From assembly GCF_037042905.1 (NCBI RefSeq), contig NC_087250.1, positions 10,976,001 to 11,040,000 of the forward strand: a stretch of 64,000 bases of DNA, read 5' to 3'. Origin of the DNA: Lytechinus pictus (Eukaryota). Below, in pieces: positions 3,001 through 57,044 of this stretch; the stretch's first letter is position 1, and every line of letters begins with the position of its first letter. The translations under genes and the position numbers were made by a program. The notes below the pieces were generated by a model. The model did no database searches. It saw nothing but the letters and a program-made list of their open reading frames with translations, and was not told where the DNA came from.

Positions 3001-6000
3001 CATTTCTCTAAGGAATAGTGAACCAAGATCATTAAAATATAAATACATGAAGGTGTATACTTACGGCCTGTTAAATAAGTAAAAAGAGAGCGGATAACAA
3101 AAATATAAAAATATTAAGGAATATTTTAGAAAACGCTCTTCGAAACGTAATTGGAACTATTTGTATTGTTCAAAGAGGTCGGTGTGATTTCAAAAAAGTA
3201 ATTTTAGAGGATTGAAAAATGGAATAATTTCATTGTCATTACCCTAAATATCAATGGATTTATTTCGTACTTATACTGTGGGTAAATCAAGGTGACCCTA
3301 CGTTGTATTGAAAATATCTGATTTTTTGAAGAAAAATAATTTTCTATTGATATATTGGATGGACAAGAATCAATCTTATAGACATTCATCTAAATGATAG
3401 TCAAAAATGCTTTGAAATATAAATGTATGTGGTGTATACTTACTTTCTGCCAAATAAGATAAGGAAAAAAGAGGAAGAATAACAAAATATAGAAGCATTA
3501 AGAAAACTTTTCAAAAACGCTCTTCGAAACGGACTTGGAAATATTTGAATTGTTTAAGAGGTTGGCCTGATTTCAAAAAATAATTTTAGAGGATTGAAAA
3601 TTGGAATAATTTTATTGTCACTACCCTAAATATCAATGGATTTATTTCGTACTTATACTGTGGGTAAATCAAGGTGACCATACGTTGTATTGAAAATATC
3701 TGATTTCATGAAATAACTTTTCCATTGATATATTGAATAGACAAAAATATATTTTTACATTTCTCTAAGGAATAGTGAACAAAGACCATTAAAATATAAA
3801 TACATGAAGGTGTATACTTACCGTCTGTCAAATAACGTAAGGAAAAAGAGAAAGAATAACAAGAGATAAAAGCATTAAGGAATATTTTCGAATACACTCT
3901 TCGAAACGTGATTGGAACTATTTGTATTGTTCAAAGAGGTCGGTGTGATTTCAAAAAAGTAATTTTAGAGGATTGAAAAATTGAATTATTTTATATTCAT
4001 TACTCTAAAATTTAATGGATTTTTTTTTTCGAACTTAGACTGCGGGTAAATCAAGGTGACCATACGTTGTATTGAACATATCTTACTTCATGAGGAAACC
4101 TTTTCCACTGATATATTGAACACACAAAAATATATTTTGACATTTCTCTAAGGAATAGTGAACAAAGACCATTAAAATATAAATACATGAAGGTGTATAC
4201 TTACCGTCTGTCAAATAACGTAAGGAAAAAGAGAAAGAATAACAAGAGATAAAAGCATTAAGGAATATTTTCGAATACACTCTTCGAAACGTGATTGGAA
4301 CTATTTGTATTGTTCAAAGAGGTTGGTCTGATTTGACATAAGTAGTTTTAGAGGATCGAAAAAAAGAATTATTTTATATTCATTACTCTAAAATTTAATG
4401 GATTTTTTTTTTCGAACTTAGACTGCGGGTAAATCAAGGTGACCATACGTTGTATTGAACATATCTTACTTTATGAGGAAACCTTTTCCACTGATATATT
4501 GAATACACAAAAATATATTTTGACATTTCTCTAAGGAATAGTGAACCAAGATCATTAAAATATAAATACATGAAGGTGTATACTTACGGCCTGTTAAATA
4601 AGTAAAAAGAGAGCGGATAACAAAAATATAAAAATATTGAGGAATATTTTAGAAAACGCTCTTCGAAACGTAATTGGAACTATTTGTATTGTTCAAAGAG
4701 GTCGGTGTGATTTCAAAAAAGTAATTTTAGAGGATTGAAAAATGGAATAATTTCATTGTCATTACCCTAAATATCAATGGATTTATTTCGTACTTATACT
4801 GTGGGTAAATCAAGGTGACCCTACGTTGTATTGAAAATATCTGATTTTTTGAAGAAAAATAATTTTCTATTGATATATTGGATGGACAAGAATCAATCTT
4901 ATAGACATTCATCTAAATGATAGTCAAAAATGCTTTGAAATATAAATGTATGTGGTGTATACTTACTTTCTGCCAAATAAGATAAGGAAAAAAGAGGAAG
5001 AATAACAAAATATAGAAGCATTAAGAAAACTTTTCAAAAACGCTCTTCGAAACGGACTTGGAAATATTTGAATTGTTTAAGAGGTTGGCCTGATTTCAAA
5101 AAATAATTTTAGAGGATTGAAAATTGGAATAATTTTATTGTCACTACCCTAAATATCAATGGATTTATTTCGTACTTATACTGTGGGTAAATCAAGGTGA
5201 CCATACGTTGTATTGAAAATATCTGATTTCATGAAATAACTTTTCCATTGATATATTGAATAGACAAAAATATATTTTTACATTTCTCTAAGGAATAGTG
5301 AACAAAGACCATTAAAATATAAATACATGAAGGTGTATACTTACCGTCTGTCAAATAACGTAAGGAAAAAGAGAAAGAATAACAAGAGATAAAAGCATTA
5401 AGGAATATTTTCGAATACACTCTTCGAAACGTGATTGGAACTATTTGTATTGTTCAAAGAGGTCGGTGTGATTTCAAAAAAGTAATTTTAGAGGATTGAA
5501 AAATTGAATTATTTTATATTCATTACTCTAAAATTTAATGGATTTTTTTTTTCGAACTTAGACTGCGTGTAAATCAAGGTGACCATACGTTGTATCGAAC
5601 ATATCTTACTTCATGAGGAAACCTTTTCCACTGATATATTGAATACACAAAAATATATTTTGACATTTCTCTAAGGAATAGTGAACAAAGACCATTAAAA
5701 TATAAATACATGAAGGTGTATACTTACCGTCTGTCAAATAACGTAAGGAAAAAGAGAAAGAATAACAAGAGATAAAAGCATTAAGGAATATTTTCGAATA
5801 CACTCTTCGAAACGTGATTGGAACTATTTGTATTGTTCAAAGAGGTTGGTCTGATTTGACATAAGTAGTTTTAGAGGATCGAAAAATTGAATTATTTTAT
5901 ATTCATTACTCTAAAATTTAATGGATTTTTTTTTTCGAACTTAGACTGCGGGTAAATCAAGGTGACCATACGTTGTATTGAACATATCTTACTTCATGAG

Positions 6001-9000
6001 GAAACCTTTTCCACTGATATATTGAACACACAAAAATATATTTTGACATTTCTCTAAGGAATAGTGAACAAAGACCATTAAAATATAAATACATGAAGGT
6101 GTATACTTACCGTCTGTCAAATAACGTAAGGAAAAAGAGAAAGAATAACAAGAGATAAAAGCATTAAGGAATATTTTCGAATACACTCTTCGAAACGTGA
6201 TTGGAACTATTTGTATTGTTCAAAGAGGTTGGTCTGATTTGACATAAGTAGTTTTAGAGGATCGAAAAAAAGAATTATTTTATATTCATTACTCTAAAAT
6301 TTAATGGATTTTTTTTTTCGAACTTAGACTGCGGGTAAATCAAGGTGACCATACGTTGTATTGAACATATCTTACTTTATGAGGAAACCTTTTCCACTGA
6401 TATATTGAATACACAAAAATATATTTTGACATTTCTCTAAGGAATAGTGAACCAAGATCATTAAAATATAAATACATGAAGGTGTATACTTACGGCCTGT
6501 TAAATAAGTAAAAAGAGAGCGGATAACAAAAATATAAAAATATTGAGGAATATTTTAGAAAACGCTCTTCGAAACGTAATTGGAACTATTTGTATTGTTC
6601 AAAGAGGTCGGTGTGATTTCAAAAAAGTAATTTTAGAGGATTGAAAAATGGAATAATTTCATTGTCATTACCCTAAATATCAATGGATTTATTTCGTACT
6701 TATACTGTGGGTAAATCAAGGTGACCCTACGTTGTATTGAAAATATCTGATTTTTTGAAGAAAAATAATTTTCTATTGATATATTGGATGGACAAGAATC
6801 AATCTTATAGACATTCATCTAAATGATAGTCAAAAATGCTTTGAAATATAAATGTATGTGGTGTATACTTACTTTCTGCCAAATAAGATAAGGAAAAAAG
6901 AGGAAGAATAACAAAATATAGAAGCATTAAGAAAACTTTTCAAAAACGCTCTTCGAAACGGACTTGGAAATATTTGAATTGTTTAAGAGGTTGGCCTGAT
7001 TTCAAAAAATAATTTTAGAGGATTGAAAATTGGAATAATTTTATTGTCACTACCCTAAATATCAATGGATTTATTTCGTACTTATACTGTGGGTAAATCA
7101 AGGTGACCATACGTTGTATTGAAAATATCTGATTTCATGAAATAACTTTTCCATTGATATATTGAATAGACAAAAATATATTTTTACATTTCTCTAAGGA
7201 ATAGTGAACAAAGACCATTAAAATATAAATACATGAAGGTGTATACTTACCGTCTGTCAAATAACGTAAGGAAAAAGAGAAAGAATAACAAGAGATAAAA
7301 GCATTAAGGAATATTTTCGAATACACTCTTCGAAACGTGATTGGAACTATTTGTATTGTTCAAAGAGGTCGGTGTGATTTCAAAAAAGTAATTTTAGAGG
7401 ATTGAAAAATTGAATTATTTTATATTCATTACTCTAAAATTTAATGGATTTTTTTTTTCGAACTTAGACTGCGTGTAAATCAAGGTGACCATACGTTGTA
7501 TCGAACATATCTTACTTCATGAGGAAACCTTTTCCACTGATATATTGAATACACAAAAATATATTTTGACATTTCTCTAAGGAATAGTGAACAAAGACCA
7601 TTAAAATATAAATACATGAAGGTGTATACTTACCGTCTGTCAAATAACGTAAGGAAAAAGAGAAAGAATAACAAGAGATAAAAGCATTAAGGAATATTTT
7701 CGAATACACTCTTCGAAACGTGATTGGAACTATTTGTATTGTTCAAAGAGGTTGGTCTGATTTGACATAAGTAGTTTTAGAGGATCGAAAAAAAGAATTA
7801 TTTTATATTCATTACTCTAAAATTTAATGGATTTTTTTTTCGAACTTAGACTGCGGGTAAATCAAGGTGACCATACGTTGTATTGAACATATCTTACTTC
7901 ATGAGGAAACCTTTTCCACTGATATATTGAATACACAAAAATGTATTTTGACATTTCTCTAAGGAATAGTGAACCAAGATCATTAAAATATAAATACATG
8001 AAGGTGTATACTTACGGCCTGTTAAATAAGTAAAAAGAGAGCGGATAACAAAAATATAAAAATATTAAGGAATATTTTAGAAAACGCTCTTCGAAACGTA
8101 ATTGGAACTATTTGTATTGTTCAAAGAGGTCGGTGTGATTTCAAAAAAGTAATTTTAGAGGATTGAAAAATGGAATAATTTCATTGTCATTACCCTAAAT
8201 ATCAATGGATTTATTTCGTACTTATACTGTGGGTAAATCAAGGTGACCCTACGTTGTATTGAAAATATCTGATTTTTTGAAGAAAAATAATTTTCTATTG
8301 ATATATTGGATGGACAAGAATCAATCTTATAGACATTCATCTAAATGATAGTCAAAAATGCTTTGAAATATAAATGTATGTGGTGTATACTTACTTTCTG
8401 CCAAATAAGATAAGGAAAAAAGAGGAAGAATAACAAAATATAGAAGCATTAAGAAAACTTTTCAAAAACGCTCTTCGAAACGGACTTGGAAATATTTGAA
8501 TTGTTTAAGAGGTTGGCCTGATTTCAAAAAATAATTTTAGAGGATTGAAAATTGGAATAATTTTATTGTCACTACCCTAAATATCAATGGATTTATTTCG
8601 TACTTATACTGTGGGTAAATCAAGGTGACCATACGTTGTATTGAAAATATCTGATTTCATGAAATAACTTTTCCATTGATATATTGAATAGACAAAAATA
8701 TATTTTTACATTTCTCTAAGGAATAGTGAACAAAGACCATTAAAATATAAATACATGAAGGTGTATACTTACCGTCTGTCAAATAACGTAAGGAAAAAGA
8801 GAAAGAATAACAAGAGATAAAAGCATTAAGGAATATTTTCGAATACACTCTTCGAAACGTGATTGGAACTATTTGTATTGTTCAAAGAGGTCGGTGTGAT
8901 TTGAAAAAAGTAATTTTAGAGGATTGAAAAATTGAATTATTTTATTGTCATTACCCTAAATATCAATGGAATTTTTCTCGAACTGTGGGTTAATCAAAAA

Positions 9001-10846
9001 GGCCATGCGTTGTAATGAAAATATCTGATTTCATGAAAAAAACTTTTTCCATTGATATATTGGATAGACAAAAATCAAGCATATAGACATTCATCTAAAT
9101 GATAGTCAAAAATACTTCAAAAAATAAATGTATGTGATGTATACTTACGTTCTGCCAAATAAGGTAAGGAAAAAGAGAAAGAATAACAAAATGTAAAAAA
9201 TAAGGAATATTTTCGAAAACGCTCTTCGAAACGTACTTAGAACTATTTATATTGTTTTAGAGGTTGGCCTGATTTCAAAAAAGTAATTTTAGAGGATTGA
9301 AATATTGAATTATTTTATTGCCGTTACCCTAAATATCAATGGATTTATTTCGTGCTGATACTGTGGGTTAATCAAGATGACCATGCGTTGTAATGAAAAT
9401 ATCTGATTTCATGAAAAAAACTTTTTCCATTGATATATTGGATAGACAAAAATCAAGCATATAGACATTCATCTAAATGATAGTCAAAAATACTTCAAAA
9501 AATAAATGTATGTGATGTATACTTACGTTCTGCCAAATAAGGTAAGGAAAAAGAGAAAGAATAACAAAATATAAAAAATAAGGAATATTTTCGAAAACGC
9601 TCTTCGAAACGTACTTATTTATATTTATATTAACTATTTATATTGTTTTAGAGGTTGGCCTGATTTCAAAAAAAGTAATTTTAGAGGATTGAAAAATTGA
9701 ATTATTTGATTGTCATTATTCTAAATATAAATGGATTTTTTTCTCGTACTGTGGGTTTATCAAGATAACCATGCGTTGTAATGAAAATATCTGATTTCAT
9801 GAAAAACCTTTTCGATTGATATATTGGATAGACAAAATTCAAGCTTATAGACATTCATCTAAATGATAGTTAAAAATACTTTGAAATATAAATGTTTGTA
9901 GTGTATACTTAAGTTCTGCCAAATAAGATGAGGAAAAAGAGAAAGAATAACAAAATATAAAAAATAAGGAATATTTTAGAAAACGCTCTTCGAAACGTAC
10001 TTGGAACAATTCGTTTGGTTTTAGAGGTTGGTCTGATTTGACATAAGTAGTTTTAGAGGATCGAAAAATAAAATTATTTTACATTCATTACTCTAAAATT
10101 TCATTGATTTTTTTTCGAACTTAGACTGCGGGTAAATCAAGGTGACCATACGTTGTATTGAACATATCTAACTTCATGAGGAAACCTTTTCCACTGATAT
10201 ATTGAATGCACAAAAATATATTTTGACATTTTTCTAAGGAATAGTTAACAAAGATCATTAAAATATAAATACATGAAGGTGTATACTTACGGCCTGTTAA
10301 ATAGGAAAAAGAGAAAGGATAACCAAAATATGAAAATATTAAGGAATATTTTAGAAAACGCTTTTCGAAACGTAATAGGAACTATTTGTATTGTTCAAAG
10401 AGGTCGGTGTGATTTCAAAAAAGTAATTTTAGAGGATTGGAAAATTTGAATTATTTTATTGTCATTACCCTAAATATCAATGATTTTTTTCTCAAACTGT
10501 GGGTTAATCAAGATGACCATGCGTTGTAATGAAAATATCTGATTTCATGAAAAAACTTTTTCCATTGATGTATTTGATAGACAAAAATCAAGCATATAGA
10601 CATTCATCTAAATGATAGTCAAAAATACTTCAAAAAATAAATGTATGTGGTGTATACTTATGTTCTGCCAAATCAGGTAAGGAAAAAGAGAAAGAATAAC
10701 AAAATATAAAAAAATAAGGAATATTTTCGAAAACGCTCTTCGAAAGGTACTTAGAACTATTTATATTGTTTTAGAGGTTGGCCTGATTTCAAAAAAGTAA
10801 TTTTAGAGGATTGAAAAATTGAATTATTTTATTGTCATTACGCTTA
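1..10846. repeat. Tandem satellite DNA, ~380 bp AT-rich monomer, with a 4-monomer (~1523 bp) higher-order repeat in ~1300-8900
   Basis: Motifs GCTCTTCGAAACG/ACTCTTCGAAACG, TTTTAGAGGAT and GGGTAAATCAAGGTGACC recur every ~380 bp. Near-identical spurious ORFs recur at 1681/3204/4727/6633/8155 (spacings 1523, 1523, 1906, 1522). The array runs off the left edge of the window. Confidence 0.98.
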
Positions 10847-16591: not shown

Positions 16592-17866
16592 CTAAATATC
16601 AATGGATTTTTTCTCGTACTGTGCGTTAATCAAGATGACCATGCGTTGTAATGAAAATATCTGATTTCATGAAAAACCTTTTCCATTGATATATTGGATA
16701 GACAAAAATCAAGCTTATAGACATTCATCTAAATGATAGTTCAAAATACTTTGAAATATAGATGTATATGGTGTATACTTACGTTCTGCCAAATAAGATG
16801 AGGAAAAGAGAAAGAATAACAAAATATGAAAAAATAAGAGATATTTTCAAAAACACTATTCGAAACGTACTTGGAACTATTTATATTGTTTTAGAGGTTG
16901 GCCTGATTTCAAAAAAGTAATTTTAGAGGATTGAAAAATTGAATTATTTAATTGTCATAATTCTAAATATCAACGGATTTTTTATCATACTGTGGGTTAA
17001 TCAAGGTGACCATACGTTGTATTGAAAATATCTGATTTTATGAAAAACAATTTTCTATTGATATATTGGATTGACAAAAATCAAGCTTATAGACATTCAT
17101 CTAAATGATAGTTCAAAATACTTTGAAATATAGATTTATATGGTGTATACTTACGTTCTGCCAAATAAGATGAAGAAAAGAGAAAGAATAACAAAATATG
17201 AAAAATAAGGAATATTTTCAAAAACACTATTCGAAACGTACTTGGAACTATTTATATTGTTTTAGAGGTTGGCCTGATTTCAAAAAAGTAATTTTAGAGG
17301 ATTGAAAAATTGAATTATTTAATTGTCATAATTCTAAATATCAATGGATTTTTTTCTCATACTGTGGGTTAATCAAGGTGACCATACGTTGTATCGAAAA
17401 TATCTGATTTTATGAAAAACAATTTTCTATTGATATATTGGATTGACAAAAATCAAGCTTATAGACATTCATCTAAATGATAGTTCAAAATACTTTGAAA
17501 TATAGATGTATATGGTGTATACTTACGTTCTGCCAAATAAGATGAAGAAAAGAGACAGAATAACAAAATATGAAAAAATAAGGAATATTTTCAAAAACAC
17601 TATTCGAAACGTACTTGGAACTATTTGTATTGTTTTAGAGGTTGGCCTGATTTCAAAAAAGTAATTTTAGAGGATTGAAAAATTGAATTATTTAATTGTC
17701 ATAATTATAAATATAAATGGATTTTTTTCTCATACTGTGGGTTAATCAAGGTGACCATACGTTGTATTGAAAATATCTGATTTTATGAAAAACCTTTTCC
17801 ATTGATATATTGGATAGACAAAAATCAAGCTTATAGACATTCATCTAAATGATAGTCAAAATACTT
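16592..17866. repeat. Satellite continuation: about 3.5 monomers with 372-bp period
   Basis: AAGCTTATAGAC occurs at 16711, 17083, 17455 and 17827. Same monomer family as 1-10846. Confidence 0.97.
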
Positions 17867-44845: not shown

Positions 44846-47800
44846 GCCATAGAGTTGGTAGTATTGATAATAATATTGTAACAATAATACGGCAGTGTGA
44901 TAATGATAATGGAATATAAAAATAAATAGCCCAAGATCTACACTTTGAAGCATCAAACAAACTGTTCGGTTCATTCGCCTTGAAAGGAGGTTGGTATTTG
45001 GAATTAGGTTTGTATGGAATGGTTGTCGATGTTTGGGAGAGCTTTTGAGTTTTAAATTTCGAGAAAACACAGTAAAAGTCAATTTACCACGCACACGCCC
45101 GGATGTAATAATGCGAGCTAGCTTGGAACTCCCACCTCAATCTGGATAGTATCATTACCTATACTTTGCGATATTGTTGCTTTCTTTTGGAAGGGGCAAG
45201 TTCAAGGGGTTCGGCGAGCAGTGATTGGGTTTTTACATAGCGCTTTGTCAATCTTAAACACAATGAAACCTTACAATTCATGGTTAAAGAATAATAGTAA
45301 ATGAGCCTTCATTGCCTGTGAGTAGTTGGAACTGAGATGATATCGACTATATCATGAATGGCAACAATTGTAATAATAATTTTGTTAGTAATGATGATAG
45401 CGGTAAATAAAAATAATGGTGAACTAAATTTCCGGAAGGGGTCAAGTGGAAATTAGTGGATAGAGATAGGCGGGCATGGGCTGTATTTGGATGTGGTTGA
45501 GCTCTGTTAAGCATGTTAAGCTTCGGTCATAATTTCCATGTGTTGCGTTTTTCAATACAATATATGCAAATGAAGTAAGCCATTTAGTCCAAGTGTACAT
45601 GTAGATGAACGGGTAAAGCTGGAAATAAAGTCGTAAATGTTTTATGTGATAAAATGGGGTGGTATTTACCCAACTGTAGTAGTTTGGATAATTGGGTTTC
45701 ATGGGAGGATGGCAGTGTATTTTTATTCAGATGATGTTACGCAGATACCCATCCATGGTTTATATCAAAAGAAAGCTACTGATTCCTCACTCAGCACGTT
45801 TCATAAATATACATGTGGCTGCCTTTTGGAATTGATCAATGAGGGGAATATGGGTGATTAGTGGCTGGATGGATGCAACCAAAAAAGATAAGAATAATAA
45901 TAATGGAAAAAAGGGAACATAAATAAATAAAACAAAATGCGTCTGCAATTTGGCTTAATTATTTCTGTAGTTTTAGAGGTTGTAAAACAGTGTATGAATA
46001 TTGTTGATAATAATACTCTTCTGCTACAACTATTAGTTAAAATAAATTGATTAACAAGCCAAAATAAATGAAGAAAAAAAAATAAATAAAGGCTGAAAAA
46101 AAAAACAATATTCATAAATTTGATAACTGGAAAACATAGATAAAAATTCAGGAGCTACGTCCATGAGAAGAGCAATTAGATCTTAATTGCCCTTAAATAG
46201 GCATGCTTCTCCTGGTGAAAGTTCTGGATGTTAATGGAATGTGTATAGCTTACATGTACTCACTGGACAAGACTTAAATGAATAAGAGAGCTCTATGAGT
46301 CCCAGGATTGGCGAGTGCGACTCCTTTAGTTGATTTGGGAACAGCAAAGGAAAAACACTGGACATGCAGGCATGGCAGGGAAGTGTTGTTTAATTACACA
46401 ACCCATGATATGGCACTCATCATACTATTATAATGGTTTCTCATATTTATATTGGTTCATTATCCAGTCGACCAAACGGTACCTTCGGCTCATACCGAAG
46501 AGAAAACACAAGACAGAACATTAACCTTTATTGAACGAATGAATAACACTGACAAATAAATTCCATAATTGAATCAATAGCAAGGAGTGATTGATGGTTA
46601 GCAACTGGCATTAAGCCGAACCGACATCAGGAAGTTCCAGATTTGAATTTAGTTTTAATTGTTATACAATGCAATCACATCTGTCATATTGGCATGGACA
46701 GACACTCGCACCTGATTGGACATGGGTAATGGCAAAAATAAACTTGGAGGTTAGCTAATAAACATATAACCCCCTGCATTCTTTCTGCCCAATTGAAAGA
46801 TATAGGCCTACACAAACAGTGCCTATCCAATGTTTCTTTTCAAGTACGAGTGTTGCTCTGGTCAGTACTTAATTATAGCATAGTTCGATGTGTGCAACTG
46901 AGTAAATCAACGAATTGGCAAAAACGATGCTTATTATTCTGGGTGTTGTTTTGGGGTGTTTGTTTTGGGGGTGTTTTTAAGTACTTGGCAATTTCATTAT
47001 CATTTATAGAAGTATGCAGGGAAGGAATGACCGAGACGGAAAGGCCAAGATTATCGGATATTTGGTAGGGGGATCCTCGTCCCAGGAAACTGGGACACTG
47101 GGTGGAGCCACCATCCTCCCAGCTGGTGACATGACTCGTGACCCGGCTCTCCCTATGTGGTTATTTCTTAGCCTTACTCTTTCCTTCCTCTGCAGGCATT
47201 GAAATTTATTGACATTACTGCGATACACATGTTTGTGAAGCGTTGGTGTAATAATAATTGGTTGATATTACTGTGATACAAAATTATGTGAAATATTGGG
47301 GTAACAATTCCCGATCGGAAATTAAAGTTGAGAAAATGGCAATATCTGGTATATCGTGTCGTATTTCTTCTCACAATATGTTTATTCGATTATCGAATAA
47401 ATTATATTAGGAGAGAATACATAGTTTTATAATGTAAACAAATACTGACTGTGTTACGATACTGCAACAAATAACAATTGAATTTAGTTTTAAATTGGAT
47501 TTTCTTTCCTTTTATTACAGGAAATATATGGATCACTAAACAAAACAAATAAATATTTATCTTACATCTCATTAATTAAATAAATAAGTGAGACAACCAA
47601 AGTCTGCTGCGATGATTATACTAGCCTGGTACCGCCCTACTGGCTCTAGCATGTATTTGTCTGATCTTGTTGAAAATGTGCTATCCAAGTTGGATGATGA
47701 ATCTAATTATATTATCCTAATAGGAGACTTAAATTGTGATCTATTAGCTTTCCCTCCCAGTTGCTATTCAAAGAGACTAAATGAACTGTCGAACTGTCAA

Positions 47801-49597
47801 ATAATTCAGACACCAACACGAGTTGATCAAAAGTCTCAAACTCTCATTGATGTTATTTTTATTTCCAATACTTCTAAAAAAGAAGAGAGTGGCGTTATAC
47901 ACACCGGGATTAGTGACCATTCACTTGTTTTTGCTTTATTTGGTAAAAGGCGGTTTAATAAATGTCATCATGCGTACAAGGTGTTCAGGGATTATAAAAG
48001 ATTAAATGGCGACGCATTTCGTGAAGAAGTAGGTAATACTAATTATAACGATGTGTACAGTTCTTCAACGGTTGATGAGTCTGCCAATTCTTTTATAAAT
48101 TCTTTTTCGTTATCATGTAATAAATTTGCCCCATTAAGAAAAAAGAAGATAAAAAGGGACAGACTTCCATGATTGATGCAGATATTCTGGCAATGATTCG
48201 TAAAAGAGACAGCATGAAAATAAAAGCAGTTAAAGATAATCAGGATGAAGATTGGAAAGCATATAAGAAAATGAGGAATTCTGTAACAACAAAACTGAAG
48301 TACAAGAAAAAGATTTACTTTCAAACAAAAATCGAGACTTCGAAAGGCAATGTAACAGAAACATGGAAAAATCTGAATATGCTATTGAATAAAAACAATA
48401 AATCAAATGAAATACCGTTCATAAAATGTAATGATATGGATATTCATGATCCTATTCTGATTGCCGAAAAATTGAAAGAACATTTTGTTAATATAGGACC
48501 CCAGTTAGCAAAGTCAATTATAGAGCCCACAGTTAAATCCGATCTTACGTATTCTTTCCATTATTTGCCTCAAAATGCACAGTTTCATTTCACACTGGTA
48601 AATGAAAGTGAGGTGTATAGGTATATCTTGAATTTACCAAATGATAAAGCTATGGGGTGCGATTTGTTACCCGCCAAACTGATCAAATTAGTTGCCGAAT
48701 GTATCACTCGGCCCTTAACACATATAAGAAACTCGTCTTTTATATTCGGTGAAGTTCCTGAAATGTGGAAAAATGCCATCGTGACTGCATTACACAAATG
48801 AGGCTCTAATGAACTTAATAATTTTAGACCGATTTCTATTTTACCGATCTTTTAAAAAAACTTAGTAAGAATAGTTTTTAACCAATTGTACAATTACTTT
48901 AATTCTCATCATCTCTTGAATGCTTCCCAATCAGGCTTTAGGTCCCTTCATTCAACCATGACAACACTGCTTTCAATCACCGATGATTGGTTTTATGAAT
49001 TTGATAATATCTTTTAGCGAAAGTATTTCGTTAACAAGCGGTTATCCAGAGTCTAGACATCAAGGGCGTAGTTGGAAATCTCCCCGCCTGGCGATCTTGG
49101 CGCGGACAGGTGGTCCAATTTAACGACTTTGTTGACGAGAAATTATCGGCGGGGAGATTTCGCTCCTACCTCCTCACTTTTCTTCGTGGTGTTCAGAGTA
49201 GCGGGTCGTATTATTTTCTATCGCTTGTTTGATTACTTCCAATTTCTACAAATTTTCTTGTTTTGAAGTTACAATTATTACTTTTTTCTTGTTTTGAAGT
49301 TACAGTTTCTTTGGACGCTTTGCAGGAATTAGAGTCTCTTTACTCGTCGTGTGTTTATACTCCTTGCGATATTACGACCTGCCTGGTGTTAATAATACAT
49401 TCTAACTTTTGACAATTATTTTGAATTCGTTGAATTTACTTCAGTACACCATCCCCCTATTTTGGCAATTATTGAAGTAGTTGAATTTACCACAGTTTAT
49501 CTGCCTCCTGTCTGCCTGTTTTCTGTGCTCGGATTCTAATTTACGCTAACTTTTAGCGGCCTCTGTCTTTCCGCGTCATCTTTTGGAGTAGTTGAAA

Positions 49598-50654
49598 ATG
49601 CCGAAAGTCAAACAGGGAAGGAAAAATGCTATCAAGTCTGCAACGCCTCGTCGCACGCGGAAGGCTGGGATTGGGAGTGCATCGTCCACCTCGGTCGTCG
49701 AAGAGGACGTCGCTGGAGCTGGAGCCGGCACGGGGCATAGAAACGGTGAGTCTGTTACTGTAGGGGCTCCCTGGCCCATAGTCACCCCTCCCGGCGCTGC
49801 GCATAGTTCCGAGGCAACCCATGAAATTCAGGCGTTTTCACATCCCCCTGATACTCCGGTTACCCTCCCCATTTACGATGGTTCAGGCATTACCCCCTCC
49901 GACACAGCCGGCTATGCTGAGCTGCGTGTGCGATGAGCTGGGTAGTGAGGTTCCTGTTGGGATTAAAGAAAAGATTTGGAGTGGTGAATACTTTGATCTC
50001 GGTTTGCTGCTAAAAAGGGACGGCGCGCAGGTAGATTCCGCTCAATCATTCAGCCTCTGTGCTACGGGGGCTGCAGTAGTTTTGCGGCCACAGAGCAAGC
50101 CGCCTGTGCTGTCTAATATTGAACAGTGGACATCAGCTTTTCTGATATTCGCGTCGATATATCTAGAGCGTCATCCAACCCGGGCTCGGGAATTATTGAA
50201 ATACATGGACATCGTACGTTCCATTGTTAGGTATGGGGGGTTCAATTGGCGGTCTTATGATGCGCAATTTCGCCTCCGTCAGGCGCGTCAGCCTTTTAGA
50301 TCATGTGCGTCAATCGACTCCGAACTATGGCTGACAATCGCAACAGCGAGCCACGGTTTTCAATATCCCGCCTCGTCATCCCTCGCCTCTAGGAGTCAGC
50401 CTTTTCGTCCATACGGGCGGGGAGCAAGCCGCACGCCCCCGTCTCGGCAGTATGGTTCGAACCGCGTCGGCAGCCCCCGACCTCCACTGCTCTGTTTCGC
50501 ATTCAATGACACCGGGTCATGCAGCCGAGTTAACTGCCGTTTTCTGCACAGATGCAGAAACTGTTCCGCGACCTCCCATGGCGCCCACGCCTGCGTCAAA
50601 CCCACCACCGCTGCCGCCAGTAGCAAACGGGTGCCCGGCCCAAACACCAATTAA
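49598..50654 (+). CDS. Gag-like ORF1 with a Cys/His-rich C-terminus, apparently split by one frameshift near 49800-49930
   Basis: MPKVKQ start in one frame. KEKIWSGEYFDL, IEQWTSAF, WRSYDAQFR and CFAFN..C..C..H.C..C..H..C lie in a second frame, typical of DIRS/Ngaro ORF1. Confidence 0.8.
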
Positions 50655-52218
50655 TTTGAAACGCATGCTTCCTTTTCTGAATAAGTACGCCAGACGCGAT
50701 GATGCCGCGCAACTTATTTCTGGGTTCCGATTTGGGTTCTCTCTTGGTTTTACCGGGATCCGTCACCCTGTTTCTTCACGAAATCTTAAATCGGCAGGGG
50801 AGCTGAAGGATATTTTAAAGGATAAGATTAAAAAAGAAATTGGCCTGGGTAGAATTGCTGGTCCTTTCCAATATCCTCCCTTTCCGAATTTTCGCTGCTC
50901 CCCTATAGGGCTTGTTCCCAAGCGTTCCCCGGGGGAATTTCGCCTTATTCAACATCTCTCAGCTCCTCGAGGTCATTCGGTCAATGAGTTTATTGACCCA
51001 GATCTATGCTCCGTATCATACACTTCGTTCGATGAAGCTGTTAATCTTGTTTCAAACCTCGGTCGAGGTGCATTTATGGGCAAGGCAGATATCAAATCCG
51101 CATTTCGCCTACTGCCGGTCCACCCTTCTGATTTTGAACTCCTCGGTTTCTGCGTAGACGGTGAATATTTTTATGACAAATGTTTGCCTATGGGTTGCGC
51201 TATATCATGTGCGCACTTTGAACGGTTTAGCACTTTTCTCGAGTCTTGTTGTCGCAGACTAGCTAATACTGACCGCATTCTGCATTATCTAGACGATTTC
51301 TTCTTCGCCGGCGCTTCGCGCGAGGAGTGTGAATCGTATATGAGGCATTTGTTGGCTATGTGCGAGGCTTTTGGAGTCCCTATTGCAAGCGAGAAAACGG
51401 AAGGGCCCGTTTCTTCTATCAATTTTTTGGGTTTAGAGATTGATGCGATAGCTCTGAAGGTTCGCGTTCCAAGTCAGAAAATCGAATCCCTGCAGACAGT
51501 GTTGTATCACTGCGAAACGCAACAGAAGTTGACATTGAGACAAGTGCAATCGCTTATCGGCAGCCTTAATTTTGTGTGTAAAGCTGTTGCTCAAGGTAGG
51601 GCATTTCTTAGGCGTCTCATCGATTTGACACGAGGTGTCCGCCGTCCGGATCACCGAATTCGCATAACAAAAGGGGCAAGAGCTGATTTACAGGCGTGGG
51701 CTTTGTTTTTATCCGAGTTTAATGGCACCGTCATGTTTTCTCATCCAAACTGGCGCTCAAATACCGAATTTCAGTTTTTCACCGATGCAGCGGCTAGCAT
51801 TGGTTTTGGCATTTTCTTTCAGAACAACTGGGCTCAGGGACGCTGGCCTGCAGCGATTTTGGATGCTAGTTTTTCCATTGCCTTCTTAGAGCTATTTCCG
51901 ATTGTGGTGGGTATCCGGCTATGGGGGGCGCGCTTAGCCAACAACCGGGTTCTTTTCTGGTCGGATAACCAAACCGTTGTGCATGTTGTTAATTCGCAAA
52001 CATCTAAGTGCAAACACATCATGAAGCTAGTTAGGATGTTGGTAGGGCTTTGCTTGAAATACAACATTCTTTTTAGGGCGCGTTACGTGCCTGGCTCTTC
52101 CAACGAAATAGCTGACTCCCTCTCTCGTTTTCAGATGGAAAGGTTTCGGCAGCTGGCACCGGGCGCCGATCAGCGGGGATGCGTCATACCCATCCATCTG
52201 TGGCGGACCTTTTTGTAG
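50452..52218 (+). CDS. Reverse transcriptase plus RNase H (open ORF)
   Basis: Motifs SPIGLVPK, FRLIQHLS, DIKSAFR, LPMG, YLDDF, FLG, TDAA, ELFPI, SDN and NEIADSLSR. Confidence 0.95.
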   Translation: MVRTASAAPDLHCSVSHSMTPGHAAELTAVFCTDAETVPRPPMAPTPASNPPPLPPVANGCPAQTPINLKRMLPFLNKYARRDDAAQLISGFRFGFSLGFTGIRHPVSSRNLKSAGELKDILKDKIKKEIGLGRIAGPFQYPPFPNFRCSPIGLVPKRSPGEFRLIQHLSAPRGHSVNEFIDPDLCSVSYTSFDEAVNLVSNLGRGAFMGKADIKSAFRLLPVHPSDFELLGFCVDGEYFYDKCLPMGCAISCAHFERFSTFLESCCRRLANTDRILHYLDDFFFAGASREECESYMRHLLAMCEAFGVPIASEKTEGPVSSINFLGLEIDAIALKVRVPSQKIESLQTVLYHCETQQKLTLRQVQSLIGSLNFVCKAVAQGRAFLRRLIDLTRGVRRPDHRIRITKGARADLQAWALFLSEFNGTVMFSHPNWRSNTEFQFFTDAAASIGFGIFFQNNWAQGRWPAAILDASFSIAFLELFPIVVGIRLWGARLANNRVLFWSDNQTVVHVVNSQTSKCKHIMKLVRMLVGLCLKYNILFRARYVPGSSNEIADSLSRFQMERFRQLAPGADQRGCVIPIHLWRTFL

Positions 52219-53155
52219 AGAGGAATCGCCTCATGCTGGCTTCTCGAGCGCAGAACACTAATTCTACCTATAGGAAGGCTTGGGACGCATTCGAGCAATT
52301 TCGGTTGCGATATCACTACGATATAAATATCGAACCAGACGTTGAACAGGTGGCTCAGTTTATTTCTTTTCTTTCATGGCATGGTTATGCGGGGTCAACC
52401 ATAAGTACTTACATATCGGGGTTAGCTTTTGGGATGCAGGCTTCGGGTTGGCCTGACACGACCGGTTGTTTCATCATTCGTCGTTTGGTGGATGGATGTC
52501 GGCGCAAATTTGCCCAGCATGATACTCGGTGCCCTATAACTTTCCCCATTCTGAAATCGTTGATTCATTCCATCTCTCATGTTTGTCCAAATTCTTACAA
52601 TCAGGCACTTTTTCGAGCCGCTTTTCTAATGGCGTTTTTTGGCTTTCTCCGGGTGGGCGAGTTTACAGCTCAATCTAAACGGGGCCCCTTTTCTTTGTTG
52701 GAAAACGATGTTTGCATACGGGGGGAGGGTCCTAGCAGAAAACTGGAAGTTATAATCCGGAGGTCGAAGGCGGATCAAACAGGGCGAGGGTGTTGCATTA
52801 TTATTCCCACATATAATTCATCTCCAATGTGTCCTGTTCAGGCTGTAGATAATTACTTGTCCATTCGTTCTAGTAGTCAGGGTGCAGTGAGAGGAATGAA
52901 CTCGCCTTTTTCCGGCACTTTAGCACTCAGCCGTTAACGAGGCATGAATTTGGTAAAATATTAAAACAGGCGATATCTTTCCTCAACTTACCGGTGGAGT
53001 TTTATTCCTCTCACTCGTTTCGTATCGGGGCGGCAACAACTGCTGCAATGGCAGGGATCCCTGACGTTTGTATTCAAAATATGGGGCGCTGGGCTTCCCA
53101 TTCCCATCGGCTTTACATCCGGGCCAATCCTGCCTTGCTTGCCGATAGTATGTGA
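52179..53155 (+). CDS. Tyrosine recombinase with a single frameshift in a T5 run at ~52907-52911
   Basis: FFGFLRVGE, RSKADQ and MCPV lie in the track frame. A shifted frame continues FRHFSTQPLTR...HSFRIGAAT...MGRWAS..LYIR to TGA at 53153-55, completing the R-H-R-W-Y catalytic set. Confidence 0.9.
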
Positions 53156-54528
53156 ACAGTGGCGGTAACTTGACTAGTTAATTCAAAGGTCGCGCTTCTT
53201 GGTTTTCGGGTTCCCCCTTTCTTTCTAGTAATCTAATTTGGCATATTATGTTGCTTTAGTCAGGAGCTGGTATTATTCAGCGGCAAGTTTAATGGTTTGT
53301 TTCTTATAGTTAGGCAGCTCGAAATATGTAGTGAAGAAGGGAATGCTTCATTCGTTTAATTTAAATGTGGTCGGGTAATTTCTATTTTTTAATAACAAGG
53401 GTAGTGAGTGACGGTATGAAGATCCCTGTTAATGAGCATGCCTGTAATTTAGTGATGCAGGTTATTTCTGTGTATATACTGGAAGGAGGGTTATTCACTA
53501 GTTGTATTTGATACTGTTTTCAATGCTTTAGGGCGGGTTTCCCGCTCGCTTATCAATGCATTAGTTGGCACTGAATACAGAATGGGCGTTGAATTCAGTG
53601 GCAATATACTACAGTGCCTACGAAATATGTATTGTTATGATGTGTTATGTAACATGTTTTGGGGCCGTCAGGCTCCAAAGTTGTAGTTCGCCTTGCTGCT
53701 TGTCTTTTTTTTTTTTATCTCCATCTACAGCTGATATGATTCCGCTTGGTTGGAACCCATTCAACAATTGGTTTGGGAGGAGCCTGCTTACTCTCGATCT
53801 ACGTGCCACGCGTCCAAGCTATTTTCTTCTCGAACTGAGTCTTTAAACGAACTTGAAGGGGGCACCAGTCGACTATACCTCATCCTTTGTTTACCCGCGA
53901 TCTACTTTCGAGATAACATGAGACATGAACTAGTTTGTGGGTCAGACCTGCCACGCGTTAACACGTGGCCTTTCCTTCAGAGCGAGCCATACCCCTCCCC
54001 CTCCCCCCACTGCCCATTCGGCCATTAATGTTTGACCTTTGCTGCTCCTTGGACATTTTACGACTCTATTTTTCCCCTCGTCCAGCCAAGAGTATTTCGG
54101 TTCTTCCCTCATTCAGCTTGTTATGTCCCCGTTTGGATTTCATGGATGGACCACAGAAGTCGCGAGTTCACGTTTCCCCCCCCCCCCACCCCCATCTCCT
54201 TCCATACCCATCTCAGACCTTCTTCTTTTGTATTTAACCATTTTGAGATGTTATATGTGTTATTAGAAGTTTTAGGTTATTGAGTTTCGCTCTTGCGCGA
54301 AGCAGAATGTGTTGTGGCGGCGGGATGTCCATCCGGGCAAGATATACCCATGCTTTCCATCCCGTTTGGCGAAATTGCATTTTTGCCACACCACATTCAT
54401 TTGTACAGTAATCTACTTTATCAGTATATACAAATAAATGTATAACGAGAGGCTTCCTGAGAGGTTTATTACGATTCGCAAAAGAATAATTATTATTAGC
54501 GCCCACGTTAATTGGCCTGGTGGGCTAC

Positions 54529-54798
54529 GGCAAGCTGAGAAATCTTGTCGTAGAAAGGCCTGTGGATGGATTTATATGTATTTTTCCCTACTTTGGCCAC
54601 GTGGCAAGCTGGGAAATCTTGGCACGAAATTTAAGTAGGAAGGGCAAGCTGTGAAATCTTGCCATGGTTTTGGGTAAGCTGAGAAATCTTACCATTAATT
54701 ATTGAACTTGGCAAGCTGTGAAATCTTGCCTTGATTGCGGGTAAGCTAAGAAATCTTACCATTAAAATATTGAACTTGGCAAGCTGTGAAATCTTGCT
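54529..54798 (+). repeat. Array of seven 21-nt palindromic units GGYAAG-CTRNGAAAT-CTTRCC
   Basis: Units start at 54529, 54603, 54643, 54673, 54710, 54740 and 54778. Confidence 0.92.
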
Positions 54799-55673
54799 AT
54801 GTTCGTGATTTTCTGAATTTGGATTATTTTTATTCCCACCTATATTGGTTGAGTTATATATACAGTATCGAAAATCATTAGTAACCTCAGGAGGCCTCCA
54901 CTTCTATTTCTTTATGTAAAACAACATATGATACTATTATGACTTTTGTTGATGATTTGATAATATGAATACGGCGATGCTACTCGGTTAATTATTAAAC
55001 CACGAAATACCGCATATAACTGTGTTTGTATCTTTGTTGTGTCTGGACTTGGATAACGGGAATGTTGTATGTGCTGTAATGCTTGATCTGCGCAAAGCGT
55101 TTGATACTGTAAGTCACGAATTGTTAATCGACAAACTATTTCAGTATGGTCTGGATGGAATGTCAATAAACTGGTTCACGAATTATTTAAAAGGGAGAGG
55201 GCAGGTTACAAGAGTCAGTGGCCATATATCTCAAACTCGCCTTATCCTAGGTGGTATTCCCCAAGGGTCAATATTGGGACCCCTACTTTTTATCATATTT
55301 GTTAATGATCTACCGTCCATTTTAAAACATTGTAAAGTTAGCTTGTATGCAGATGATACGATGATTTATTGCTCAGGCAAAAGTCCCACTGAAATATGTT
55401 TTAAGATTAATGAAGATCTAGAAAACATAAGAAAATGGCTGATTAAAAATAAACTACATTTAAACATCGATAAAACCGAGTACATTGTACTAGGTACCAA
55501 ACAAAGGCTCTGTAAAATTAAAAATGCTATATTTCAGATACATATTGATAATACTCCATTGCGTAAGGTAGATGAATGTAAATATTTAGGTGTTATCCTT
55601 GATTCTAATTTAACATGGCAAAACCATATTGATTATGTTCAGAAGAAAGTAAATGGTGGTTTATTCATGTTAA

Positions 55674-56070
55674 AGAGAAATGCCAGTAGTTGCAGTAAAC
55701 ACTGATTTCATGAGAAAGTCTGTAAATCCAGGCTTAACTGTCAGAATATCATCGAGGATCTAGATCTGGTACAGTTACGTAAACTTAACTTTGTGAAATC
55801 TTGAAATCTACGCTGAAAAATGTTCACACTGAAGATCACCAACACAGATAGGCACACGTGGGGGGACAGTGTATTAATATTGCTGGAATAAAGACCCGAC
55901 GGAAGTGACCGAATCCGCGCTTATTTTGCTTATTTCTCAGCAATTACACAATTTCTTCCAGAATCCTTTGGCACATATTTTTTTTTCATACAAACAGACA
56001 CTTGGGTGGTCATTTTATTAGATTCTGTAAAAAGTCATTTTGAGATCGTTACCAAAACTGGAATTTATCT
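55674..56070. mobile_element. TTAA-flanked MITE (Kolobok-like, 397 bp)
   Basis: TTAA at 55670-73 and 56071-74. TIR AGAGAAATGCCAG / CTGGAATTTATCT. Removal restores the LINE frame GGLFMLKSIKNFV...HFNYCDAVWG. Confidence 0.88.
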
Positions 56071-56663
56071 TTAAAGTCTATAAAGAACTTCGTCGACGAA
56101 AAGTATCTGATCATTGTTTATAATTCCCTGATAATGTCACATTTTAACTATTGCGATGCTGTATGGGGTACCGCGGGTTGATTAATCACAGAATTCTTCA
56201 AAAGCTACAAAATAGGGCTGCCCGAATAATAAATCGATCTCCATGGTATTCATCTTCCAAAGAAAAATTAAATAAATTAAGATGGGTAACGCTACAAGAA
56301 AACAGAAGAGACAACATTGCTATAATGATGTTTAAAATAATGACAGGACAGGCACCGACATATTTAATTGAAAGATTTTCATTTTATAGGCATACATATA
56401 ATACACGGTCAGGTCCACTGACTTTAGATATTCCCCAAGCAAAAACCGAATCTGGTAAGAAAACTTTACGTTCAGGGGGGCTCAATGCTGGAACTCACTA
56501 CCAATCCAAATGCAACAATATAATACCACTACCAGTTTCAAAAGGGCATTAGCTAATTCAAGGAAATGAATCACAAAGGGATAGGTTGGCGGGGGAGGGT
56601 TTGTCTTTTTTTAATTATTTTTTTTAGCCCATTAATGCGTTATATCATAGGGATGAGACTTAA

Positions 56664-57044
56664 AGTGATTGGTTAACATTGGTTTGACTTTTAAAAAATC
56701 TGAGCTAGAAGGTCACACTTGTCACCTGTGTCTGTGATATGTTACAAAAATGAAGCCCAGAAAAAATTGTGTTCGAAAATAATTATTTAGTGCTTCAAAA
56801 ATTGAAATATAAAGTGACCGGAAACACCATCTTAATTTCCTCCCATACACTTATGTGTACTATTTAGGCGTCTATAAGACGCCTATTTACAAAATCGGGG
56901 TTTGCCTTGTAGTTTTAGCTTTTCATTCTCAATAATAGTTGTTTTCAGGGTTTATTAGTTCTAATACATGCACTTGACGTACACATTTTTCATCTTGGTT
57001 TGATATTTTTTTTAATCGGCTGCTCACAAAGTTAAACAAAACCT
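56664..57044. mobile_element. TTAA-flanked MITE (Kolobok-like, 381 bp) in the LINE 3' UTR
   Basis: TTAA at 56660-63 and 57045-48. Imperfect TIR AGTGATTGGTTAACATTG / CAAAGTTAAACAAAACCT. Confidence 0.72.

Follow-up and report, generated by a model that had tools for sequence, protein, structure and literature searches.

The tandem hairpins near the 3′ end of a Ngaro-like retrotransposon of Lytechinus pictus are best read as a functional cis element, which lies in the 'B' terminal split repeat of this element. A functional cis array had already been proposed in an earlier sequence-only reading of the locus, and we prefer this view because the array is specific to the element, its base pairing has been kept, compensatory changes included, and the hairpin cores are better conserved than the sequence between them. 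The mode of action can be named less firmly. That the units form hairpins in the plus-strand RNA, whose G-N-G loops may be recognised by the CCHC-knuckle Gag of the element, is a serious possibility, albeit short of a probable one. All positions refer to the window, i.e. the whole stretch of 64,000 nucleotides that was analysed (NC_087250.1, 10,976,001 to 11,040,000, forward strand).

Structure of the hairpin array

A pattern search permitting at most one mismatch identified seven 21-nt units of the type GGYAAG-N9-CTTRCC at 54529-54798. They begin at 54529, 54603, 54643, 54673, 54710, 54740 and 54778, all on the plus strand, and are separated, from unit 1 to unit 7, by 53, 19, 9, 16, 9 and 17 nt. 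Shuffled sequences lead one to expect 0.23 matches, and seven were reached in none of 100 shuffles. Each unit consists of a 6-bp stem and the 9-nt loop CT(G/A)NGAAAT (CTGNGAAAT). The stems of units 3 and 5 are GGCAAG/CTTGCC, those of units 4 and 6 are GGTAAG/CTTACC; the sole departures of unit 1 (CTTGTC) and unit 7 (CTTGCT) are G·T-compatible changes, and unit 2 (CTTGGC) has a G-G mismatch in the window copy. The sequence-only reading had given these units and their 9-53 nt spacing correctly in every detail, as it had the stem types of units 3-6, the G-U-compatible units 1 and 7, the mismatch and the loop. Its suspicion of a dimer repeat of about 67 bp was also well founded. By TRF, 54643-54801 has a period of 67 bp, repeated 2.4 times with 90% matching, and therefore units 3-4, 5-6 and 7 represent a tandem expansion of a two-unit repeat, the copy number of which varies between copies of the array. 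Rfam gave no match to 48000-56000 at E≤1. The arms were also compared with half-sites of RFX or NFI, and the loops with Smaug recognition elements (CNGG loops), but these likenesses were dropped, since either the spacing or the majority of the units is at odds with them.

Units 1 and 2 are more elaborate. The stem of unit 1 is lengthened to 10 bp by CTAC...GTAG flanks (54525-54553, plus strand; DNA fold -6.2 kcal/mol, z -4.1). Unit 2 forms a two-tier hairpin at 54587-54639 (plus strand), in which a 7-bp outer stem is followed by an internal loop and a 9-bp inner stem with the G-G mismatch. The 5′ flank of unit 2 is overlapped by a CACGTG palindrome (54598-54603); this E-box is part of a perfect 10-bp palindrome, GCCACGTGGC, at 54595-54604, for which the C4 copies have GGCCACGTGAC and which a sister family (family 2) does not retain. 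The hairpin domain as a whole is closed, in the minimum-energy fold, by a long-range inverted repeat with plus-strand arms at 54449-54461 and 54886-54898. Family 2 has conserved the sequence of this repeat, which, being invariant, is uninformative on pairing.

The host element and its genes

When the 811-Mb genome was searched with 48400-55400, both flanks of the element proved to be one LINE, intact copies of which match the two flanks with an overlap of 11 bases. The 5′ part of this LINE (APE endonuclease and the start of the RT) occupies 47588-49002 and its RT continues at 55057-55705, both on the plus strand. Many copies of the LINE are 88-97% identical, and its uninterrupted form is spanned by RNA reads. 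These reads join 49002 to 55052 with 5 letters in common. From the LINE-spanning reads and the element ends, the inserted element therefore extends over about 49003-55056 (plus strand). It is a whole copy of the form A-internal-B, lacking A2-x-B2, with GATAA at both ends.

The YR-retrotransposon context that had been claimed upstream of the array was found in full, with all genes in one orientation. A gag-like gene (49592-50654) is spread over two overlapping frames (49592-49936 and 49782-50654) and ends in a CCCH finger and a C-x2-C-x4-H-x4-C knuckle. The knuckle occurs in the Gag of both the window family and family 2; the Pfam zf-CCCH match of Gag lies below threshold (E 0.054). An open RT/RNase H frame of 627 codons follows at 50335-52218 (RVT_1, 4.3e-15). 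Its 3′ end is overlapped by the tyrosine recombinase (YR), which covers 52116-53155 in two frames (52116-52937 and 52877-53155). The YR piece in the window has no Pfam match of its own. It is 61% identical to the YR of family 2, and the latter matches Phage_integrase (6.3e-07; 29.8 bits, the cut-off being 27.1). A methyltransferase or hydrolase domain gave no Pfam match in any frame of the element. Thus, the element encodes RT/RNase H and tyrosine recombinase and lacks a methyltransferase domain between RNase H and YR, as is characteristic of Ngaro. A likely poly(A) signal, ATTAAA, is located at 54994-54999, downstream of the array. With gag and recombinase both frameshifted, the element in the window is dead, and this is the one full copy of a small family.

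Placement of the array in the split repeat

The C4 locus reveals where the array belongs. It comprises B (window 54293-55056), A (48997-49233) sharing one GATAA with B, 316 bp, and B again. It follows from this B-A-x-B layout that the array is inside B, and not outside canonical Ngaro structure, from which the sequence-only reading had not recognised it. The B repeat extends over 54293-55056, its start being 54293 or 54393 according to the two B copies at C4. The A repeat (49003-49255), the 5′ terminal part, follows B at the natural C4 junction and begins with GATAA; both repeats are on the plus strand. Split direct repeats of the type A1-[ORFs]-B1A2B2 are absent from the window copy and present in its family and in the sister families. 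Within 46000-57000 no long direct repeats were found besides the array, the window copy being A-internal-B, and we infer that it has lost A2-x-B2, for instance by recombination between B1 and B2. Family 2 possesses the complete layout (in locus L023, A1 704-1112, B1 5908-6522, A2 6518-6926, B2 7190-7804), and family 3 has the same full A1...B1A2xB2 arrangement. According to the available passages of PMC8547959, PMC9210276 and PMC4157794, A1...B1A2B2 is the published Ngaro layout. In a further copy, C8 (L014 2263-3383), A (257 bp) and B (660 bp) share 97-98% identity with the window and enclose 1122 bp that have no relation to the window element; this copy may be what is left of an A2-x-B2 stretch, or else a non-autonomous derivative.

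Distribution and history of the array

The strict motif has 29 matches in the 811-Mb genome and none in the reversed control. All 29 fall into seven places that are copies of the B region, of which a separate search found eight. That the array belongs to the element is thereby borne out, and a minisatellite spread independently through the genome can be dismissed, as the motif has no occurrence outside B-region copies. Arrays that are preserved across the repeat hold 5-8 units, and one of the copies, C14, has lost unit 1; more degraded or partial arrays have 1-4 units left. Three RNA reads that skip 68 bp (54699 to 54768) represent another copy-number variant of units 3-7. Units 1 and 2 are ancestral, because their flanks are unrelated and they are common to family 2; units 3-7 are a tandem expansion specific to family 1, the window family.

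Two side observations concern other repeats and rearrangements. In the C16 copy an insertion of about 550 bp (L016 2335-2887) divides the array between units 3 and 4. Far upstream in the window, an AT-rich 383-bp satellite (28.5 copies, 84% matching) occupies 12-10841, and a 372-bp repeat (3.4 copies, 96% matching) occupies 16592-17866.

Pairing and covariation within the family

The pairing was scored on 48 units, which a loop-anchored search had gathered from 9 arrays at 8 places; this search demanded at least 4 of 6 pairs and so favoured paired units and left out more degenerate ones. The units make up 39 distinct rows, in which pairing is seen in 93.6% of 234 cells, compared with 32-55% when the partner is slid. 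Two of the six core pairs change on both sides, CG to UA in 11 and GC to AU in 2 of the 39 distinct rows, and the covariation score of the unit alignment was reached by none of 500 shuffles. The both-side changes therefore define three Watson-Crick versions of the stem, GGCAAG/CTTGCC, GGTAAG/CTTACC and GACAAG/CTTGTC, of which the second has spread by duplication. Covariation extends into the lengthened stem of unit 1. In the window lineage its outer four pairs are CTAC/GTAG; the C4 copies have CGGC/GCCG instead, i.e. two compensatory pairs, and the C5 copy is intermediate (CTGC/GTAG, with one G·U). The G-G mismatch of unit 2 is found in three copies of the window lineage. RNAalifold, unaided, recovers hairpin 2 together with the outer portion of hairpin 1.

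A two-tier hairpin conserved in a sister family

Family 2 shares 68% DNA identity and 72-73% RT protein identity with the window family. At the orthologous place, marked by the common flanks GATGGA and TTTGGCC, it has kept the two-tier hairpin 2 with its 7-bp outer and 9-bp inner stem. The outer stem is CCUACUU/AAGUAGG in family 1 and CCACAUU/AAUGUGG in family 2, the inner stem CGUGACAAG/CUUGUCACG and CAUGACAAA/UUUGUCAUG, respectively. Five of the 16 pairs have been altered on both sides and none is broken. Thus, the covarying stem of the sequence-only reading is supported by compensatory changes within the family, in the core and in the unit 1 extension, as well as by pairing conserved in a related element. 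The MAFFT alignment, by comparison, gave 8 pairs with both sides changed; as it misaligns hairpin 1 of family 2, some of these are artefacts, and only 2 (helix 1, C4 copies) and 3 (helix 2) were counted from it. The independent covariation events are few: two in the core, two in the unit 1 extension and five between the families in hairpin 2. It is important to note that, according to the available passages of PMC8794818, template switching can produce compensatory pairs in one step, without selection.

In family 2, the counterpart of unit 1 is weak, with a 5-bp stem in the RNA fold that is absent from the DNA fold. There are only two hairpins, and their loops differ from those of family 1; they also carry G-N-G. 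The B repeat of family 2 is 99-100% identical in all 40 scored places and therefore counts as one sequence, not many. Family 2 occurs at L023-L028 and about 25 further places and has open gag, RT/RH and YR frames; its copies are 98-100% identical with the full A1-B1A2xB2 layout, and it looks like a young family.

In more distant relatives the array was not found. It is absent from families 3 (46-48% protein identity) and 4, and when 14 loci of other families were searched with a covariance model of the unit, no match came below E 0.5 (best E 0.58). A metagenome scan with a YR alignment yielded four loci; the tail search covered L040, whose 1.3-kb 3′ tail contains no hairpin array, the tail of L041 being only about 0.3 kb long. 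Simply counting hairpins in B of four families was uninformative, the numbers being hardly above those of mononucleotide shuffles. The B repeat of family 3 contains a GGTCACATGACC-type palindrome three times in a 170-bp tandem repeat, and that of L031 contains GGTCACGTGATC and GATCACGTGACC. As a side observation, distant families have an A-run of about 30 bases just upstream of the B repeat that holds these palindromes (the two features together at oriented positions 5765-5798 and 5900-6300 in L029, 6226-6258 and 6390-6460 in L031), and L040 has an A-run too (2902-2927).

Sequence constraint, strand preference and transcripts

The cores of the units are more conserved than their surroundings. 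When the window copy is compared with the C4a copy, to which it is 79% identical, 139 of 147 core positions agree, compared with 104 of 125 in the spacers of the array (Fisher p 0.003), a contrast that may be somewhat inflated because aligners tend to lock repeated cores together. Against the other columns of B, the difference is also clear (471 of 585; p 1e-5), as it is in the comparison with C14 (77 of 84 core positions versus 375 of 497; p 6e-4). Against the more decayed copies C5, C6b and C10 the contrast between cores and the rest is not significant. Loops are conserved as much as stems.

With regard to the strand, the plus strand folds to -140.3 kcal/mol and the minus strand to -113.5, a difference of 27 kcal/mol; in z-score, at -4.15 and -4.17, the strands are equal, and both beat shuffles. 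A hand tally of single-side changes in the stems gave about 8 G·U events on the plus strand versus 2 A·C (binomial p 0.11), and it includes two old, shared changes in units 1 and 7. The plus-strand bias is thus suggestive only. Units 3-7 alone are marginal as RNA, with -7.8 and -5.8 kcal/mol (z -1.5 and -1.7), values matched by 14 and 13 of 200 shuffles. Neither the window copy (z -1.3) nor family 2 (z -0.9) has a significantly stable region of hairpins 1 and 2.

The comparison of 48400-55400 with transcript data gave 107, 27 and 28 reads from three raw RNA-seq runs and three pieces from a contig run. RNA-seq covers 54484-54951 at a depth of about 5 per direction in one of the three runs, by reads that are 95-99% alike and stem from other copies. 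No usable transcript start or end emerged from the three RNA-seq runs, which are of low depth and have reads from other copies. Run X21 has five molecules whose start is at 54830 and five whose end is at 54453, close to the limits of the hairpin domain, possibly as duplicates of a single fragment.

The crossover site lies in a separate palindrome

Six of eight compared 3′ ends close with ...GGACTTGGATAA, one of them with two altered bases, at window position 55056; the other two (C16 and C10) terminate differently. The 5′ ends begin with (GATAA)TATCTTTTAGCG (49003/49008). GATAA is found at both ends of the element (49003-49007 and 55052-55056), and the natural B-A junction and the empty LINE site each have a single one. 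This recurrence points to a 5-bp crossover core, or a target preference, of the tyrosine recombinase. These GATAA sites were viewed in the window and at L014, L015 and L021; other insertions have (T/A)N(T/G/A)GATAA upstream.

The B/A junction is a nested palindrome made up of a 16-17-nt inverted repeat and a 34-nt spacer, which holds an inner hairpin. Its B-side arm (55041-55056, plus strand) ends in the GATAA core, and its A-side arm is at 49042-49058 (plus strand). The DNA folds of the junction reach -16.5 kcal/mol (z -5.4) at the natural C4 junction, -17.1 (z -5.2) in family 2 and -12.5 (z -2.65) in family 3, and the palindrome is kept in these three families with altered letters (L015:3546-3625; L023:6498-6577; L029:3292-3377(-)). 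It is likely to be the recombination site, or the circle-junction equivalent of the ICR of DIRS-1. In agreement with this, a short species-specific sequence at the circle junction has been proposed to define DIRS integration sites, as far as the available passages of PMC7192593 go; there it is a trinucleotide, here a 5-base core. Because the crossover is at the GATAA of the B/A junction, about 250 bp downstream of the array and in another, larger palindrome, the alternative of the sequence-only reading that the units are recombinase half-sites fails. The units are rejected as core site, since the boundary of the element is not in the array.

Possible functions of the array

The covariation, the conserved loops, the single orientation and the transcribed terminal repeat fit a plus-strand RNA hairpin with a sequence-specific binder. 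The hairpins would act on plus-strand RNA, with B present in every full-length transcript and twice in transcripts of the A1-B1A2xB2 form. Every loop holds G-N-G, N being the sole freely varying position, and this conserved motif would be displayed to the binder. The best candidate for the latter would be the element's own Gag, with its C-terminal CCCH finger and retrovirus-type CCHC knuckle. Retroviral nucleocapsid knuckles bind loop guanines such as those of G-N-G. In view of this binding mode, the Gag knuckle and the loops, a multivalent Gag-binding signal for packaging or RNP assembly is favoured, Gag binding of the units being plausible by analogy. As a second choice, the array might have a role in starting or guiding reverse transcription.

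Alternatively, the units could be double-stranded DNA sites for a host transcription factor, i.e. an enhancer-type tandem repeat in a regulatory terminal repeat. The 21-bp unit is indeed conserved as sequence, the loop included, and its number changes by tandem duplication, as in enhancer repeats; furthermore, CACGTG overlaps the flank of unit 2, and B of distant families contains the repeated E-box-like or half-site palindromes of family 3 and L031. We consider this reading unlikely, as the joint change of symmetric positions, seen in three Watson-Crick stem versions and the covarying extensions, is not accounted for by a dimeric DNA binder, and family 2 keeps the stems while loop and stem letters differ. 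In addition, all units have one orientation, B is downstream of the genes in the integrated element, and a known factor site was not matched by any tool used. Similar doubt attaches to a palindromic minisatellite without function, spread by slippage, in which template switching or arm conversion renews the palindromy. The recent tandem expansion of units 3-7 with its variable copy number would agree with neutrality, as would the few independent covariation events, the small and dead family, the lack of the array in families 3 and 4, and the one-step compensatory changes described for template switching (available passages of PMC8794818). Nevertheless, the cores are better conserved than the spacers (p 0.003, as above), and units 1 and 2 have the same core outside the tandem repeat and amid unrelated flanks. 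Hairpin 2 has, moreover, been kept at 68% identity with five compensated pairs over two stems 30-50 nt apart, which is not explained by one short template switch.

Other readings assign the array to DNA transactions of the element. Accessory sites are known from the arm-type sites of lambda attP and the accessory repeats of Tn4430, and the units might likewise be bound by the tyrosine recombinase or a helper protein and organise the B/A junction. The array is 250-530 bp from the crossover in the same repeat, its units are direct repeats of inverted half-sites, and ACTTGG is common to the junction arm and to units 5 and 7 with their 5′ flank. Yet only 2 of 7 units have this flank, and the unit arms are otherwise unlike the junction arms. 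Protein half-sites are not expected to covary, family 2 conserves the junction palindrome but has just two hairpins, whose loops differ, and an arm-binding domain was not detected in the YR; accordingly, we regard accessory sites as very improbable. The least probable reading is that the hairpins act on single-stranded cDNA, either in second-strand priming or as folded recombinase substrates or loading sites that prepare the junction palindrome, for which folded sites such as integron attC are a parallel. Palindromes fold on either strand, and DIRS-1 intermediates are linear single-stranded cDNA whose priming is unknown (available passages of PMC7192593). First-strand cDNA, however, is minus, so that the G·T pairs of units 1 and 7 become A·C mismatches, and this strand folds 27 kcal/mol less well. 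Plus-strand RNA hairpins offered to the element's Gag are the reading that we retain, tentatively, in the following comparison.

Relation to known systems

The element resembles Ngaro elements of the DIRS order in that gag, RT/RNase H and YR share one orientation without a methyltransferase domain, families 2 and 3 have the A1...B1A2xB2 layout, the C4 locus reads B-A-x-B, and the array is in B. It differs in that the window copy is only A-internal-B. A tandem hairpin array in B was not found in the available passages of the Ngaro literature searched (PMC8547959, PMC9210276, PMC4157794 and PMC7192593). A related feature in the DIRS order is an RNA hairpin at the 3′ end of DIRS-1, proposed by Poulter and Goodwin as self-primer of reverse transcription (cited in the available part of PMC7192593). 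Both are 3′ terminal non-coding hairpins of a YR retrotransposon with a proposed signal function, in DIRS-1 one in replication. The DIRS-1 hairpin is single and at the very 3′ end, whereas here 5-8 hairpins per preserved array are located 250-530 nt before the end of the element, upstream of ATTAAA. The same source, in its available part, states for DIRS-1 that the priming of reverse transcription in YR retrotransposons is unknown, and an account of RNA packaging or cDNA completion in YR retrotransposons was not found in the literature searched.

Against this background, the locus provides two candidates in a metazoan-type Ngaro lineage, namely a covarying hairpin module beside a zinc-knuckle Gag and a separate GATAA junction palindrome, and thus a modest lead on the copying of these little-understood elements. 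If the hairpins bind Gag, they would be, to our knowledge, the first packaging signal in the DIRS order. If they do not, a clean annotation remains: the array is part of B, and neither a recombination site nor a free satellite.

Beyond the DIRS order, the U3 enhancer repeats of LTRs are also variable-number tandem repeats in a terminal repeat, and factor-like palindromes occur in B of families 3 and 4; the stems described here covary, however, which enhancer sites do not need. Simple retroviruses have repeated structured RNA near the 3′ end, such as the constitutive transport element and the direct repeats of RSV. In these, as in the array, structured motifs are repeated between the last gene and the terminal repeat and act, or in our case would act, on genomic RNA; there is no similarity in sequence or in Rfam (0 matches at E≤1), and the units here are much smaller. 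Finally, retroviral packaging signals are stem-loops bound by the zinc knuckles of Gag/NC. The array differs from them in that it is placed in a 3′ terminal repeat instead of a 5′ leader and consists of tandemly amplified, near-identical units, for which binding is putative; it shares with them several small hairpins, unpaired G-N-G in the loop and a Gag ending in a C-x2-C-x4-H-x4-C knuckle.
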